From Escherichia phage AV111: a stretch of DNA of 64,000 bases. Position 1 is the stretch's first letter, and every line of letters starts with the position of its first letter. Under the pieces are notes generated by a model. That model saw nothing but the letters and a program-made list of their open reading frames with translations, had not been told where the DNA came from and ran no database searches. The stretch lies in the sequence record OR352941.1; one strand, written 5' to 3'. Made by a program: the position numbers and the translations under genes. Shown here one piece after another: positions 2,096 to 54,533 of the stretch.

Positions 2096-2428
2096 TCACT
2101 TATAAAGACACGGAATAGCTTTATAGTGGCATGTTACGAATTTCTGTTTAATTTCTTTAGGTTGTTTAAGTCCCAAAGCCACAAATGGATGTGGAACATT
2201 TCGAATTTGTCCAACTGGTAGTGGAGTCAAATCACCGACTTCAACAAAACCTTCAGGAACATCAGGACCTACAGAATGAACTACACATAGTTCAGGAACT
2301 TCACCTTGAACACGTTTACCAATCACAAGTCCTGATTCGGTAACTTCTTCATCACCCGCTTGAGCGGGTTCAGAAACCAGAATGACATATTCACCAACAG
2401 CACGAATTGGGAGTTGTACTTCAGACAT
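2096..2428 (-). CDS. 31: gp31 co-chaperonin (GroES-like), 110 aa
   Basis: [34 protein letters not shown]... recognised as T4 gp31. Confidence 0.9.
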
Positions 2429-2485
2429 CTTATTTCCTTGTTGTTTGACGATAGATTAATAATACCATACTATTCGTAAAGCATA

Positions 2486-2794
2486 TTACATAAGAAGCAA
2501 ACGTTCTACCGGAGTACCATCAACCGAAATTACTTTATCAAGGCGGAAAGAACGCCACTGGCCTAACTTGGTATCGAATGCTCGAACTGATTCACGAGGT
2601 TCATAACGAACTTCTGTTGCCGGATTGTTATTTTCATATTTGACTTCAAGTTCATCGCGGGAGGCAAACATCGTACGAACATCACCGTTAGCCTTTTCAA
2701 ATACAACACAATGAACGCCTACAGACAGAATAGTTTTAATACGTTCACGAAGAACCATAGTTTCTTGTTCAGTTAAAATCATATTATTCACCAC
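2486..2794 (-). CDS. hypothetical protein, 102 aa (31.1 position)
   Basis: ORF track; synteny. Confidence 0.55.
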   Translation of the reverse strand: MVNNMILTEQETMVLRERIKTILSVGVHCVVFEKANGDVRTMFASRDELEVKYENNNPATEVRYEPRESVRAFDTKLGQWRSFRLDKVISVDGTPVERLLLM

Positions 2795-3365
2795 AAAAGT
2801 TTCGGATTTGTTCCCAATTCAGAGAACGAAGATTATTACGAGAGTACTGAATTACTTCAATACCGGCTTGTTTTAGAATGTCTGCCCAATTTTCAGGAGA
2901 TCTGTCATATAATTCTGCGTATACAACCTTTTTAATACCTGACTGTGTAATAGCTTTAGTGCAATCAGGACATGGAGAAAGCGTCGTATACAACGTAGCA
3001 CCTTCAATAGAATTACCTTTACGAGCTGCAAACAAAATTGCATTCAGTTCCGCATGGATTTCATTATTAGCAGACCATGCACTATGAGCGGCCCGATGTT
3101 CTTTAGCCAAAACAAAATTATCTGCCCGTCCAAATGCTGTAGTGCCTTCTTTATGCCCAGCAACGATGACCGGGCTTGGTTTATTCTTCAACCAACCGTT
3201 TTCGGATGCATGTTCACAACAGTTAACACCACCGGCCGGGCTACCGTTATACCCAGTAGAAATAATGCGCCCATCTTTTTCAATGACTGCGCCAACTTTC
3301 CATGAACAACATTTTGATTCTTGAGAAATCAGATATGCAATCTGAAGGTATGTGCTAGCTTTCAT
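2784..3365 (-). CDS. cd: dCMP deaminase, 193 aa
   Basis: Zinc-binding deaminase motifs CEHASE (HAE) and SPCPDC (PCxxC); length matches T4 Cd. Confidence 0.9.
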   Translation of the reverse strand: MKASTYLQIAYLISQESKCCSWKVGAVIEKDGRIISTGYNGSPAGGVNCCEHASENGWLKNKPSPVIVAGHKEGTTAFGRADNFVLAKEHRAAHSAWSANNEIHAELNAILFAARKGNSIEGATLYTTLSPCPDCTKAITQSGIKKVVYAELYDRSPENWADILKQAGIEVIQYSRNNLRSLNWEQIRNFCGE

Positions 3366-49522: not shown

Positions 49523-50836
49523 TCAAATAAAATGGACGTCAAAACGACCACGAGTCGTGCCGACATATAGTAATTGTTTGGCTAATTCTGAATCGGCATA
49601 ATGGATACACGGTGTATAAACAAAGGCCGTGTCAACAGATATACCCTGGGCCTTATGGAAGGTTGATACAGGTAGTGCCTTCACCTTAGTGAACATGCGT
49701 TTAGCATCCCAGAATTCGCTCCATGGAGCTTTACCGCCTTTATTCCAGAATTTGTATGTTTCTGCGGTCTTAGCCAAAAACAAATTGAATTTATAAAGCT
49801 CTTCTTCAGAAGAAATAACCTTTATATCCTCTCGGACGTATTCCTCATCATCACCATATGTTTCTACTGTAAGATTCCAGTATCGTATCATATATTCGCC
49901 TGAAACACCACGTGCTTTAACGAATGTAGACGTTTCTACAGCATCTCGAATACGAACGAATTGCCCATTATTGAAAAGCATTTCGGTCATATTTTTACCG
50001 TCTAGCTTATATGTCTTAGTAAATGGCTCTTGTAGAACAATGACTTCGTCTTTAATAAATGGTTTTTCTGTTTCAAGAAGTTTTCGGCGAATAATTGAAT
50101 TTAACTTGTCCACCGACTTATTTGTGAATGCCATCATTCGATTTTCGAAAAGGTCTTCAGGAGTTTTAACGACGTTAAAATAGTTCATCATATACGATTT
50201 AAGGTCTGTATATCCATGAACGCCGTGCCCATCAACTACTTTATCGTAAATCCATTTGCCATTACGAATATCAGTCGCAACATCAATAATTGGTGCATTG
50301 CTACGTTTAACTTCTGTAAGGTTGCATTGCACGAAGTCTTTGTGAGTGAAGAAAGGACTTAGATACGCAGTTGATTCGCCTGGGTCTACCGGACGAATCT
50401 GGCATCGGTCGCCGATTCCAATTACTGTACACCATTTAGGGATACTAGCTAACATTATTTTAAACAGAGAACGGTCGCACATTGACGCTTCATCAAATAA
50501 CAGTACACGACACAAGGCTAAGTCGGGAACCTTTTTCTGTTCAAACAATACGTTTTCTTCGTATGTAGTTGGGTTGATTTTAAGAATGCTATGAATAGTC
50601 GATGCTTCTTGACCCGCAAGTTTGCTTAGAACCTTTTTAGCGGCATGTGTAGGGGCTGCTAAAATAATACCTGATTCTCCTGAAGAAATAAGAGCTTCAA
50701 CAATAAATCTAGTAAGGGTTGTTTTACCTGTACCAGCCGGTCCATTAATAGTTACATGATGTTTCTTTTCTTTAATAGCTTCCATAACAACGTTGAAGGC
50801 GTTTTTCTGGCCTTCAGTCAAATCATCAAATGTCAT
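49523..50836 (-). CDS. dda: Dda DNA helicase (SF1B), 437 aa
   Basis: MTFDDLTEGQKNAFN...INGPAGTGKTTLT... matches T4 Dda; Walker A present. Confidence 0.9.
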   Translation of the reverse strand: MTFDDLTEGQKNAFNVVMEAIKEKKHHVTINGPAGTGKTTLTRFIVEALISSGESGIILAAPTHAAKKVLSKLAGQEASTIHSILKINPTTYEENVLFEQKKVPDLALCRVLLFDEASMCDRSLFKIMLASIPKWCTVIGIGDRCQIRPVDPGESTAYLSPFFTHKDFVQCNLTEVKRSNAPIIDVATDIRNGKWIYDKVVDGHGVHGYTDLKSYMMNYFNVVKTPEDLFENRMMAFTNKSVDKLNSIIRRKLLETEKPFIKDEVIVLQEPFTKTYKLDGKNMTEMLFNNGQFVRIRDAVETSTFVKARGVSGEYMIRYWNLTVETYGDDEEYVREDIKVISSEEELYKFNLFLAKTAETYKFWNKGGKAPWSEFWDAKRMFTKVKALPVSTFHKAQGISVDTAFVYTPCIHYADSELAKQLLYVGTTRGRFDVHFI

Positions 50837-51144
50837 CGTAAAGTCCCTGCAATTGGAATACTAACAATACGGCCAGTGTCCAGGATTCGTTGATACAATC
50901 TTTGCGTCTCCGCATCTAGTTTAATGTGTTTCATTTCAAGCTTATTAAACCAGAACTTACGCGGAGTTTCGACCATTCTTAGAACTCCCATTTTTAAATC
51001 TGTTTTATACTGTGTTTTCAAAGTATCGAAAACTTTATCTGCAATATCCTTTCTAAAAAATACTGCAGGACGATGCTCATCAAGTGGAACCGGGACAGTA
51101 AATCCTTCCATATCTCGATAAACTATTGCATATACATAAACCAT
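50833..51144 (-). CDS. hypothetical protein, 103 aa (dda.1 position)
   Basis: ORF track. Confidence 0.5.
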   Translation of the reverse strand: MVYVYAIVYRDMEGFTVPVPLDEHRPAVFFRKDIADKVFDTLKTQYKTDLKMGVLRMVETPRKFWFNKLEMKHIKLDAETQRLYQRILDTGRIVSIPIAGTLR

Positions 51145-51146
51145 AA

Positions 51147-51893
51147 TTAACCTTTAATCAGTTGGAATAATGATGCGCTAAGTGGTAAGCCACGTTTCAA
51201 TTTTAATTTACCAATGAAACCAATCTTTTCAAAACGTTGCAGACCTTGGATAACTTTATCATATGTATCGAAAAGCGATTCAGCGTCAGTTAATTTAGTT
51301 TTAGTTTTCCAGTCAGAGCCTTTAAGAAGAACGTTGAGTTTAGTAAGTTCATGGCCTTCTGCTTGATGTGAGCCATTAATGCGTGCTTTCAAAGCAACAA
51401 TTCTAAGTTTAGATTCGTTAGATAAAGGTTGATTTTTCATCATGTTCGCCATATGCTTAACACGATTTTCACGTTTTGCTCGGATTTTTAAAATAGTATC
51501 ATAAACCTTTTTAATTTGGGCCCATTTCTTCTCGTCGAGATTAAGTTTCTCTACTTTACGGGCAGAAGGATTAGCAATACGTCTTGCAACAGCGTCACGT
51601 TTCTCAATAAGTTCTTCTAATGTTAAATCAGAACGAGCCGTGTTATATTTTTTCTTAACTGGGATAACATTACCTTTAATGTAGCCGATATCGTTATTAA
51701 AACGTTCTAAGGATAATTTCTCACCTTCAACAGAGTTATTAAAGGATTCGCCTGAGTAAGCGCAGACCTTTTGATCAAGAATGTTTTTAAGGTAATTAAA
51801 GTCTAAGTTAAAATCCTTAGAGCGTCTCTTCGCAGAAGCTCTGGTGTGGTCAAGACGACGATTGATTTTGTTAATTTTATTATTTGATAACAT
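51147..51893 (-). CDS. hypothetical protein, 248 aa (srd position); N-terminal region has an HNH-like ERFNNDIGYIKGNVIPV signature
   Basis: Synteny with T4 srd; motif seen by eye only. Confidence 0.4.
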   Translation of the reverse strand: MLSNNKINKINRRLDHTRASAKRRSKDFNLDFNYLKNILDQKVCAYSGESFNNSVEGEKLSLERFNNDIGYIKGNVIPVKKKYNTARSDLTLEELIEKRDAVARRIANPSARKVEKLNLDEKKWAQIKKVYDTILKIRAKRENRVKHMANMMKNQPLSNESKLRIVALKARINGSHQAEGHELTKLNVLLKGSDWKTKTKLTDAESLFDTYDKVIQGLQRFEKIGFIGKLKLKRGLPLSASLFQLIKG

Positions 51894-51934
51894 AATATTT
51901 TCCTCTGTCTTACGGACGTTAAGGTCATTTAGCT

Positions 51935-51972
51935 GATAAGTCTATAATATCATGCCCTCAGGTAGTGTACAC
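51935..51972 (-). promoter_or_regulatory. T4-type early promoter (variant -35)
   Basis: plus-strand ctgataagtctataatatcat 51931-51951; gtgtacac 51966-51973. Confidence 0.35.
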
Positions 51973-52046
51973 TCTTTTTTCGTAAAATGCTTTAATTTTT
52001 TATGTGTTATAATGGTTCTGAGTTCCATCCGGTTATTCCAATTCAG

Positions 52047-52655
52047 TCAGTAACTGACAATAGACAGATTCCAGATTGTATAACGTCCATCTTGAATAAT
52101 AGAATCTACACGCAGTGTAGTCCCTATAGGGAGCATAAATTCACATTCGTCAGATATAAGTCTAGCATTAGACCGTCTTGTCGCTTCAGGGAAAGCTCCA
52201 TTGAACTCACAAGATGGCGCAGCCAGAATCATGTTAAGCATATGTTCACGGAAGTTGAAAGCAAATGGTGCATCTTTGATGCAGAACATATTAAATGTTC
52301 CGTAAAAATTATACGAAGCAAAGTTACGTGCTACACCGAACACTGGGCTGAAGCTCATTACTCTGTCAAATTTAATAATACTACCAATGCCTTTATCATC
52401 AAGTGTGGCCATAGTTTTCTTAGAGATTCCACGATACATTGTCTCAGGAACAGAAGACGTCCAATTTCTACGAACGATTGAACTTAACTCCTGTTGAATA
52501 CAGTCTGGCTTGTTTTCCATACACTGCCAAAGGATGCTTTGTTCATTATCGTTGAATTGACTATCAATTTCGTACTGCAATACATCTTGATATTCGGGGG
52601 TTTGAGCACGACGAACCATTTCTTCAATTTCACACTCGTTATACGGCATAAACAT
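52047..52655 (-). CDS. modA: ADP-ribosyltransferase (ModA-like), 202 aa
   Basis: ART R-S-E signature: YRGIS, SFSP, ECEFMLP; paralogue of next ORF; modA versus modB assigned by order only. Confidence 0.6.
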   Translation of the reverse strand: MFMPYNECEIEEMVRRAQTPEYQDVLQYEIDSQFNDNEQSILWQCMENKPDCIQQELSSIVRRNWTSSVPETMYRGISKKTMATLDDKGIGSIIKFDRVMSFSPVFGVARNFASYNFYGTFNMFCIKDAPFAFNFREHMLNMILAAPSCEFNGAFPEATRRSNARLISDECEFMLPIGTTLRVDSIIQDGRYTIWNLSIVSY

Positions 52656-52674
52656 TTAGGTTTCTCCTGTGGTT

Positions 52675-52712
52675 GATAGAGGTATAGTATCATCATCGGA
52701 AGAGTTTGTACA
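52675..52712 (-). promoter_or_regulatory. T4-type early promoter (variant -35)
   Basis: plus-strand tgatagaggtatagtatcat 52675-52694; tttgtacac 52707-52715. Confidence 0.35.
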
Positions 52713-53294
52713 CTAAAAATTCAACATTTTCAAATGAATGATTTTGTATAATCGAGATAAAGGGTCATATTCTAAGTCTTCAATTTCCACAATCTCAAAT
52801 CTAGAGATACCTGAGACCATGTACTCTTGTTCAGATTCAATCATATCTAGGACGTCAACACGCTTTTCTTCCATAATATGCTTAGGGTTCTTTCCGGCGA
52901 GTACAATGTTAACCATGTTTTGGTAGTAATCAAAAATGAATGGAGCATTCCTGAGACTAAGAATAGTGTACGTCTGATACTCCCAACTCCCAGAGAATTG
53001 ACGAGCTGTACTGAAATCAGTTGTGAACGATGTTACTCGTCCAGGAGACCAATGACATCCAACAGAAAGAAGTGAAAGACGTTCTACTTCTTCTGGAGTT
53101 ACACCACGGTAGAGTTCTACTGGTACTGTAGAAGTCATATGCTTACGAACAAGATGGTCTAATTCATAGTGGAAATCCGGGTCTTCCTTAGAATCGGTGC
53201 AAGCCCAGAGAATGTTTTGTTCTTGTTTAGTGAATTTGCTATCAATCAGATTTGTTAGGTATTCACGTTCTTGAAGTTCAGATTGACATGTCAT
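52713..53294 (-). CDS. modB: ADP-ribosyltransferase (ModB-like), 193 aa
   Basis: ART signature YRGVT, SFTT, EQEYMVSG. Confidence 0.6.
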   Translation of the reverse strand: MTCQSELQEREYLTNLIDSKFTKQEQNILWACTDSKEDPDFHYELDHLVRKHMTSTVPVELYRGVTPEEVERLSLLSVGCHWSPGRVTSFTTDFSTARQFSGSWEYQTYTILSLRNAPFIFDYYQNMVNIVLAGKNPKHIMEEKRVDVLDMIESEQEYMVSGISRFEIVEIEDLEYDPLSRLYKIIHLKMLNF

Positions 53295-53309
53295 GATAGA
53301 CCTCCATTT

Positions 53310-53349
53310 AAAGATAAGCCTATCATAACACGAGAGGAGGGAATGTAAA
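53310..53349 (-). promoter_or_regulatory. T4-type early promoter
   Basis: plus-strand gtaaac 53344-53349; ataagcctatcataacac 53323-53340. Confidence 0.35.
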
Positions 53350-53510
53350 CTACTTTTTAAGCTTTCCTACTAAAGGTCCATCAGGGCCAGGTTGTTCTAA
53401 CATGAATAACGATGCTTTAAAAAGCAATGTTAACCCTTTCACCATTCGATACCATGTCTCAAAGTCTTTTTCCTTGATTTCTAGTAAAAATTTCTCTTTC
53501 AATTTATCTT

Positions 53511-53699
53511 TCATTTCCAAGGACTCCATGGTGGAGGGTCGTCATAATAAGAGGCAAGGTCTTTCAGGGCTTCAACAGGTAAACTAAAGCCGTGTCGTTG
53601 TATAATACTATCTAGTTCATCAACAAGTTCACTACGATGCACTTTAGGAGCCTCAACTTCAGGCTCGTCAAACATACTCATAAGGTCCATATTATTCAC
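53511..53699 (-). CDS. hypothetical acidic protein, 62 aa
   Basis: ORF track. Confidence 0.4.
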   Translation of the reverse strand: MNNMDLMSMFDEPEVEAPKVHRSELVDELDSIIQRHGFSLPVEALKDLASYYDDPPPWSPWK

Positions 53700-54156
53700 C
53701 TAAATAAAAACTAGGCTGCTCGGAGAATGTTTCTAGCGCTACACCTTTTGTCTTAAAAAATTTCCAAATAGCTCGTTGCAAATGGATTAAATCTGCTAAT
53801 GATGTAATAAAGTATTTTTTGGCAAAATACTTATGGTCTCGATTTTCAAACAAGTCTAAACGCTTTTCAGGATTCACATAAACGGCATTTTCCGTAGATT
53901 CATAACCTAAGTCCTTTATGCCTTCTTCAAGACTAAACGGAGAATTTTTAGAATGAGTAATAGCTCCAACTCGCTCTACACGAATTTTGTAACCTTTAGG
54001 AATCTGCAATTTGCAGAATTCTTCTACGATATATTGCGGATTATTTAGACTTTTGTTAATGAGAATAGCTATTTCTAGTGGAGTCTTATCTTCTACTGGT
54101 ATATGTTTAAATGACTTGGCTTCAAGCAAATACATTTTAAATAACATAGCATCCAT
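53692..54156 (-). CDS. hypothetical protein, 154 aa
   Basis: ORF track; GAGGAAATTATAATG start context. Confidence 0.5.
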   Translation of the reverse strand: MDAMLFKMYLLEAKSFKHIPVEDKTPLEIAILINKSLNNPQYIVEEFCKLQIPKGYKIRVERVGAITHSKNSPFSLEEGIKDLGYESTENAVYVNPEKRLDLFENRDHKYFAKKYFITSLADLIHLQRAIWKFFKTKGVALETFSEQPSFYLGE

Positions 54157-54161
54157 TATAA

Positions 54162-54335
54162 TTTCCTCGATGGTTCACCCATATAAAGTTTTACAATACG
54201 TTCGCCTTCATCTTCGACGAGCTTTTCTTCATGTTTCTGGAATTCTTTAGCCATATTCTCTTCAAGAACATCCAGCCAATCTTCTGGTCCGACACCATCA
54301 TTCCAGCTTTTAAACCATTTTACTATTCTGTTCAT
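54162..54335 (-). CDS. hypothetical protein, 57 aa
   Basis: Hand-translated MNRIVKWFKSWNDGVGPEDWLDVLEENMAKEFQKHEEKLVEDEGERIVKLYMGEPSRKL; GGGAG SD. Confidence 0.35.
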
Positions 54336-54533
54336 TCGCAGCTCCCTGAGTCCGAACTACAATCGGAATAACTTGAACCAGAATCTCCAGACCAGGATGA
54401 TACGTAAGAATGATTATAACTTGAAGAGTTTGAAGCAGACTTAGGACGAATAACTTCTTCCATCATGCCGTCACCAATGTATTCCCAACTTTTTTCATGT
54501 GTATCAGGAATAGGCATCATACCTTCGCCTGGT

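Follow-up and report, generated by a model that had tools for sequence, protein, structure and literature searches.

Two ADP-ribosyltransferases of bacteriophage T4 are among the closest described systems for the gene pair analysed here: ModA (NP_049635, 200 aa) ADP-ribosylates Arg265 of both RNA polymerase alpha subunits, and ModB (NP_049636, 207 aa) modifies S1, L2, EF-Tu and trigger factor by ADP-ribosylation and by RNAylation. To our knowledge, T4 ModB is the sole case of RNAylation with NAD-capped RNA. ADP-ribosyltransferase activity is abolished in the ModB variant R73A (PMC10468400), and ADP-ribosylation in the ModA variant E165A (PMC11404850). T4 Alt also belongs to the R-S-E superfamily and, like ModA, acts in host takeover via Arg265 of RNA polymerase alpha (PMC3014915). 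Unlike the Mod proteins, it is a member of the Alt/VIP2 family, is 682 aa long, and is packaged in the head and injected with the DNA.

A pair of the ModA/ModB type is present in Escherichia phage AV111, of which we analysed a 64-kb stretch (hereafter the window). The interval 52047-53294, singled out in a preliminary description as a paralogous ADP-ribosyltransferase pair, is delimited exactly by the outer ends of two open reading frames, ORF1 and ORF2 (Table 1). Their proteins align with 33% identity over 147 aa (BLASTP, E = 3e-27) and match the same phage protein family, which bears out the description of the two as paralogues on the strength of sequence similarity.

Table 1. Coordinates of the two Mod-family genes of phage AV111, of neighbouring genes and of putative expression signals (positions in the window).
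Feature	Coordinates	Strand	Length or position	Description
ORF1	52047..52655	minus	202 aa	Mod-family ADP-ribosyltransferase, T4 modA slot, adjoins srd
ORF2	52713..53294	minus	193 aa	Upstream Mod-family ADP-ribosyltransferase, T4 modB slot
Shine-Dalgarno of ORF1	52664..52668	minus	8 nt before first ATG of ORF1	AGGAG, read off the sequence
Shine-Dalgarno of ORF2	53301..53305	minus	6 nt before ATG of ORF2	GGAGG, read off the sequence
Promoter-like site, T4 early type	53322..53349	minus	5' of ORF2	(G)TTTACA, 16 nt, TG-TATGAT
Weak promoter-like site	52684..52712	minus	ORF1-ORF2 gap	TGTACA, 17 nt, TACTAT
srd	51147-51893		Downstream of ORF1	Srd anti-sigma factor
Small ORF	53350-53529		Between ORF2 and modA.2-like gene	

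The AGGAG sequence located 8 nt 5' of the first ATG of ORF1 favours the 202-aa start. In a consensus scan, the promoter-like site 5' of ORF2 showed 10 of 12 matches together with an extended -10 TG, and GTTTAC is the -35 consensus of T4 early promoters (PMC1524935); we infer a promoter function for this site. The weaker site in the gap between the two genes was read off the sequence and lies under the scan threshold (8/12). Its -35 element overlaps the stop codon of ORF2 and is of the same type, GTGTACA, as that of a scan-listed site 5' of srd (51971..51944), and a role as promoter is speculative. Over the whole region the scan observed 12 promoter-like sites against 11.9 expected in shuffled sequence and, given that there is no excess, the sites near ORF1 and ORF2 are to be taken as suggestive only.

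Profile searches matched both proteins to PHROG 832, 'RNA polymerase ADP-ribosylase' (ORF1, E = 1e-37; ORF2, E = 3.8e-38). ORF2 also matched PHROG 26695 (E = 1.7e-41), and homologues of both proteins carry the precomputed Pfam label PF26816. Scans of ORF1 and ORF2 against Pfam-A and NCBIfam returned no family; the scanned libraries are without a PF26816-type model, and this blank result is thus due to a library gap and is not evidence against Mod-family membership. The Arg, Ser-x-Ser/Thr and Glu-x-Glu elements that the preliminary description had reported were every one found, in columns equivalent to those of the T4 proteins. ORF1 carries MYRG (R75), SFSP (S101-F-S103) and DECEF (E170-C-E172), and ORF2 carries LYRG (R63), SFTT (S89-F-T91) and SEQEYM (E155-Q-E157). 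In an alignment with the T4 proteins from NC_000866, the co-linear residues are R72, S96-A-S98 and E163-Q-E165 in ModA, and R73, S99-F-T101 and E171-Q-E173 in ModB, so that the Glu-x-Glu elements, whose lack of equivalence had been named as what would refute the description, align exactly with those of both T4 enzymes.

The Arg-Gly, the first Ser of Ser-x-Ser/Thr and both Glu of Glu-x-Glu are invariant in 15 homologues from at least 10 phage genera, and the catalytic columns are likewise invariant in 18-sequence alignments; the middle position of Glu-x-Glu is variable in the family (Q, C, D, L, T). Short motifs such as these are not significant by themselves, and it is their position in invariant columns that carries weight. 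A chance ORF or a chance motif match was ruled out by the E-values, the conservation and the dN/dS ratios. Taken at the level of sequence, these data place ORF1 and ORF2 in the R-S-ExE Mod family of ADP-ribosyltransferases (cholera-toxin-like, ARTC clade), and catalysis is very likely retained in both.

AlphaFold2 models built on the 18-sequence alignment were confident for ORF1 (pLDDT 94.6, pTM 0.88) and ORF2 (pLDDT 89.6, pTM 0.85). Both show an N-terminal bundle of three to four helices followed by a beta-rich core. In the ORF1 model, R75 lies in strand E72-76, S101 in E100-103 and E172 just before E173-175, and in the ORF2 model R63 lies in strand E60-64, S89 in E88-91 and E157 at E157-160; as predicted, therefore, the placement of the Arg, Ser-x-Ser/Thr and Glu-x-Glu elements is the canonical R-S-E arrangement in both proteins. 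The best 50 Foldseek matches of each model in the PDB were all R-S-E ADP-ribosyltransferases (E = 1e-5 to 1e-6, TM about 0.5), including Vis, C3bot, XopAI, CDTa, iota Ia, HopU1, Tre1 and Certhrax; those of ORF2 included Certhrax, CDTa, Tre1, HopU1, iota Ia and XopAI. Among predicted viral structures, the ORF1 model superposed on a T4-type ModA model in BFVD (TM 0.86) and on the single-copy Mods of Serratia and Pectobacterium phages (TM 0.85-0.86). A sequence search of the PDB found no solved structure of a Mod protein, and phmmer of ORF1 against PDB sequences gave no match. The phmmer matches of ORF2 to nucleophosmin and Cas9 were dismissed as noise at chance level. A Mod-family sequence profile matched XopAI at its ExE strand, marginally (E = 0.029) but in the correct place.

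The order of genes at the locus is dda, dda.1, srd, ORF1, ORF2, a small ORF, a modA.2-like gene and a modA.3-like gene. This agrees with T4 (modB-modA-srd-dda.1-dda) except for the extra small ORF, which occupies the same place in Gaprivervirus and Dhakavirus records. The downstream neighbours encode the Srd anti-sigma factor, Dda.1 (Pfam Phage_Y01A) and the Dda helicase, and the upstream ones are the modA.2-like gene, the modA.3/Mrh-like gene and soc. ORF1 and ORF2 are single-domain proteins of Mod-family size (about 170-230 aa), encoded between modA.2 and srd in a T4-like early region. Two mod copies were found in Tequatrovirus, Mosigvirus, Dhakavirus, Gaprivervirus and a Yersinia phage, and one copy in the same slot in Winklervirus, Gelderlandvirus, Marfavirus, Krischvirus, Jiaodavirus and Roskildevirus. 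A Mod profile run against the six-frame translation of the window recovered no further member beyond ORF1 and ORF2, nor a third, Alt-like ADP-ribosyltransferase, a class that might escape a Mod profile; scanning all 64 kb for tRNAs and Rfam families found nothing.

The 1.5-kb region shares 98-98.7% DNA identity with more than 130 sequenced coliphages, and those labelled to genus are Mosigvirus (APCEc01, OLB35). The genome that carries the pair is therefore that of a Mosigvirus, an RB69-like T-even coliphage. Mosigvirus records already annotate both genes as ADP-ribosylases (protein identity 93-99.5%), and with the pair annotated in more than 100 sequenced phages it is, as had been anticipated, an expected trait of a T4-like phage. 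Comparison with Mosigvirus OLB35 gives dN/dS ratios of 0.16 (ORF1) and 0.07 (ORF2); 11 of the 14 substitutions in ORF1 fall within the N-terminal helices (residues 19-59), and the catalytic residues are unchanged in both proteins. ORF1 and ORF2 are maintained as functional proteins under purifying selection.

The Mod proteins stand out from their surroundings by their divergence. Against T4, Dda of the window is 78% and Srd 68% identical, whereas the Mod proteins reach 31-36%. Between Dhakavirus and Gaprivervirus, the upstream mod copies are 27% identical, compared with 68-71% for the srd-proximal copies. The flanks are mosaic as well: Srd is of Mosigvirus type in VR20 but of Dhakavirus type in Yersinia phage P8, though the two phages are otherwise nearly identical. 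On account of the low Mod identity, the divergence of the upstream copies and the mosaic flanks, the mod locus is a recombining island that evolves fast, in agreement with the description of viral ADP-ribosyltransferases of this kind as fast-evolving conflict genes (PMC9503650). In so mosaic a region, the notion of strict orthology may lose its meaning.

Several alternative readings of the pair were weighed against this background. That ORF1, ORF2 or both have lost catalysis and persist as relics or as binders with no enzymatic role, as the unusual Cys in the middle of the ORF1 Glu-x-Glu (E-C-E) might suggest, is very improbable indeed, since the R-S-ExE residues are all intact and invariant, the middle residue varies across the family anyway, dN/dS is as low as 0.07-0.16, and both ORFs are intact in at least 131 related genomes. 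The correspondence to the individual T4 proteins is less straightforward. The preliminary description had matched the pair to ModA and ModB, with alignment to T4 to tell which is which; the match to the family stands, but a one-to-one correspondence is not established, both ORFs scoring higher against T4 ModB. In pairwise BLAST, ORF1 scored 103 bits against T4 ModB and 73 bits against T4 ModA. T4 ModB matches ORF1 better than it matches ORF2 (90.5 bits), and ORF1 and T4 ModB are reciprocal best matches, which contradicts an assignment by gene position, ORF1 lying directly upstream of srd as modA does in T4. ORF1 and T4 ModA are not reciprocal best matches, although ORF1 is the best match of T4 ModA in such genomes. 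Public records and UniRef label ORF1-type proteins either way, 'modB' included, and the labels could accordingly be reversed, with ORF1 as the functional equivalent of T4 ModB (S1, EF-Tu and trigger-factor modification, RNAylation) and ORF2 as something else. We consider such a reversal improbable. The higher score of ORF1 against ModB reflects the long branch of T4 ModA and the ancestral residues kept in T4 ModB, whose own best matches overall are the single-copy S16 and X20 proteins (135-138 bits). In turn, the best non-Tequatrovirus matches of T4 ModA are all srd-proximal, ORF1-type copies (the top 8 of 33). In a neighbour-joining tree of 33 taxa with 500 bootstraps, the srd-proximal clade including ORF1 was recovered at 84%, and at a moderate 69% with T4 ModA, a long branch, added; a T4-specific modA/modB duplication received 1.4%. 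The grouping of the ORF1 clade with T4 ModA had 56% bootstrap in an 18-taxon neighbour-joining tree. Two sequence motifs, NKPD (with a shortened loop) and FP[DE]xxR, are also common to the srd-proximal clade and T4 ModA. Columns shared exclusively with the srd-proximal clade are nearly tied (five with ModA, four with ModB), and this count was dropped as primary evidence for orthology, as it gave nine for the Gaprivervirus upstream copies and T4 ModA. Isoelectric points did not separate A and B types. On its sequence relationships and motifs, we regard ORF1 as being of the ModA type, with moderate confidence.

For ORF2, a specific relationship to T4 ModB found support in gene position only. ORF2 is the positional equivalent of modB, lying between the modA.2-like gene (upstream) and the modA-type gene (downstream), and of the two T4 proteins it clearly matches ModB better (36% identity over 160 aa, 90.5 bits, versus 42 bits for T4 ModA). 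Outside its own clade, however, its best matches are the single-copy Mods of S16, F48 and X20 (145-164 bits), compared with 90 bits for T4 ModB and 64 bits for the Gaprivervirus upstream copy. ORF2 groups with the Dhakavirus upstream copies at 100% bootstrap in the 33-taxon tree, in which a clade of ORF2 and T4 ModB had no support and the backbone nodes had 20% bootstrap or less. Three 1-aa deletions and a long loop preceding the ARTT region are common to T4 ModB and the upstream copies of Gaprivervirus, but absent from ORF2 and the Dhakavirus upstream copies. Together with the contrast between upstream and srd-proximal copies noted above and the mosaic flanking genes, these data raise the possibility, which we hold tentatively and at somewhat below even chances, that ORF2 represents a third lineage of Mods, akin to the single-copy ones of S16, X20 and F48, brought in by gene replacement or recombination, with targets of its own and maybe without RNAylation. 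Arguing the other way, slot, size and fold are equal to those of ModB, loop indels are prone to homoplasy, and the poorly supported backbone is compatible with vertical orthology followed by fast divergence. A broader proposal, which we regard as slightly less likely still, is that the T-even 'modB slot' is a swap site for non-orthologous Mod lineages across genera, one type being found in T4 and Gaprivervirus and an S16-like type, ORF2 included, in Mosigvirus and Dhakavirus. Were this true, the host-target spectrum of ORF2 would differ from that of T4 ModB, RNAylation would perhaps be absent, and the RNAylation biology of T4 would not extend even to its closest relatives.

Very probably, ORF1 and ORF2 are both mono-ADP-ribosyltransferases of the phage Mod family, single-domain and expressed early, ORF1 being of the ModA type and ORF2 a second paralogue. 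Both enzymes, being of R-S-ExE type, are presumed to be arginine-specific. The N-terminal helical bundle would probably serve substrate recognition, and the ADP-ribosyltransferase core, with the Arg on strand beta-1, the Ser-x-Ser/Thr on the next core strand and the Glu-x-Glu where the ARTT loop ends, would bind NAD+ and, shortly after infection, move ADP-ribose onto arginine residues of host proteins, thereby contributing to host takeover. The most likely target of ORF1 would be Arg265 of the RNA polymerase alpha subunits, the modification of which would block UP-element and activator contacts, and targeting of RNA polymerase by ORF1 is plausible by analogy with ModA. ORF2 would most likely act on other host proteins, for example translation or chaperone factors. 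For enzymatic activity, early timing and targets alike, we infer from the T4 precedent (PMC2988021, PMC3014915, PMC10468400). The statement in the preliminary description that modification of both host RNA polymerase and translation factors is likely retained goes further than this and is not established. With Mod proteins so much less similar to T4 than Dda and Srd are, a transfer of target specificity (alpha-Arg265; S1, EF-Tu and trigger factor; RNAylation) is a matter of extrapolation, and T4 ModB in particular is no guide to the target set of ORF2.

The ModA/ModB-type pair is an already known and annotated part of the T-even host-takeover set, and nothing about its presence in AV111 is new. 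What the comparison brings out is that automated naming as ModA or ModB by best T4 match is unreliable in the RB69-like group, for which public labels conflict. It also suggests that results obtained with T4, namely alpha-Arg265 modification and RNAylation of S1 and L2, should not be carried over to these proteins, and least of all to ORF2, because the Mods are far more diverged from T4 (31-36%) than their neighbours are (68-78%).

Compared with bacterial R-S-E toxins of the C2/C3/VIP2 type, ORF1 and ORF2 agree in fold and in where the R, STS and ExE elements lie, but sequence identity is 9-18% and the N-terminal helical region differs. Sequence searches from ORF1 and ORF2 retrieved no bacterial ADP-ribosyltransferase toxin except for the marginal XopAI profile match. 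Vis, C3bot, iota Ia, CDTa, Certhrax, HopU1, XopAI and Tre1 are secreted toxins or effectors, whereas the Mods are phage early proteins. ORF1 is like ModA in its slot beside srd, its similar size, its R-S-ExE columns, its NKPD and FP[DE]xxR motifs and its predicted structure (TM 0.86), and unlike it in sharing just 31% identity (73 bits). ORF2 is like ModB in its slot and catalytic columns and in having ModB as its better T4 match, but is 14 aa shorter and differs in the deletions and the pre-ARTT loop described above. In T4, modB and modA overlap by 4 bp, whereas ORF2 and ORF1 are set 57 bp apart. Other Mosigvirus, Dhakavirus and Gaprivervirus phages (e.g. APCEc01, JK45, AV115, OLB35, Bp7, VR20) share the organisation of the locus, the srd-proximal copies of Dhakavirus and Gaprivervirus being 53-58% identical to ORF1. 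With respect to the Mods of Mosigvirus there is essentially no difference, AV111 being another isolate of that group.

The mod genes constitute a hyper-divergent island between the window phage and T4, as judged from protein identities across the locus (window 49523-54156). Dda and Srd are 78% and 68% identical, respectively, to their T4 counterparts; identity is 31% between ORF1, the probable ModA-type ADP-ribosyltransferase adjoining srd, and T4 ModA, 36% between ORF2, the second paralogue, and T4 ModB, and 36% for ModA.2.

Exchange at this locus is suggested by Yersinia phage P8 and VR20, whose Dda and Mod proteins are near-identical. Despite this, their Srd proteins (L005 4704-5447 in P8; L006 4705-5451 in VR20) are very different, that of VR20 being 74% identical to Mosigvirus Srd and that of P8 81% identical to Dhakavirus Srd, a pattern indicative of recent recombination with its breakpoint between the mod genes and srd. 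Shigella phage JK45 (NC_054940) is recorded as Tequatrovirus jaykay, and its mod locus is 98.3% identical to those of the window and of Mosigvirus phages. Despite the Tequatrovirus label, this locus is unlike its T4 counterpart, and JK45 is either misclassified or a mosaic genome.

ORF1 and srd are separated by a non-coding gap of 153 bp (window 51894-52046) that contains a promoter-like site. In CLB_P2 and P8 the equivalent gap is occupied by a small annotated ORF, and in Klebsiella phage F48 by a dmd gene. Terminator-like hairpins numbered seven in the scan of window 51000-54500, against 2.2 ± 1.4 expected, the majority of them lying within coding sequence on either strand. Neither tRNA genes nor, at the gathering threshold, Rfam families were detected across the whole window (1-64000).

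The two small ORFs upstream of ORF2 overlap each other. In JK45 and in the Mosigvirus record APCEc01, the annotated CDSs are shorter (165 and 180 nt), with starts that differ from those mechanically listed for the window.

Features of the mod locus and labelled ORFs in related records
Feature	Location	Context	Basis or label
Promoter-like site	51971..51944	ORF1-srd gap	Promoter-like site scan
Terminator-like hairpin	52476..52458	Inside ORF1	Scan
Terminator-like hairpin	52283..52269	Inside ORF1	Scan
Terminator-like hairpin	52120..52106	Inside ORF1	Scan
Small ORF, 59 aa	Window 53350-53699	Upstream of ORF2	PHROG 5790
Small ORF, 62 aa, GTG start, modA.2-like	Window 53350-53699	Upstream of ORF2	PHROG 1647
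Small phage ORF	L003 3133-3321		Molybdenum-binding
Small phage ORF	L004 2903-3091		Molybdenum-binding
Small phage ORF	L005 (P8) 2227-3049		Molybdenum-binding

The label 'molybdenum ABC transporter periplasmic molybdenum-binding protein', given to small modA.2/modA.3/modA.4-like ORFs in several phage records, seems to be a misannotation that arose because the gene name is shared with bacterial ModA.

A partial Mod-like match was also observed in Klebsiella phage vB_Kpn_AM_K4 (268435-268782; hit H85), with 33% identity to ORF1 over 57% of its length (E = 1e-9). This is a jumbo phage of 288,685 bp, and the match lies beyond the usual T4-like context.
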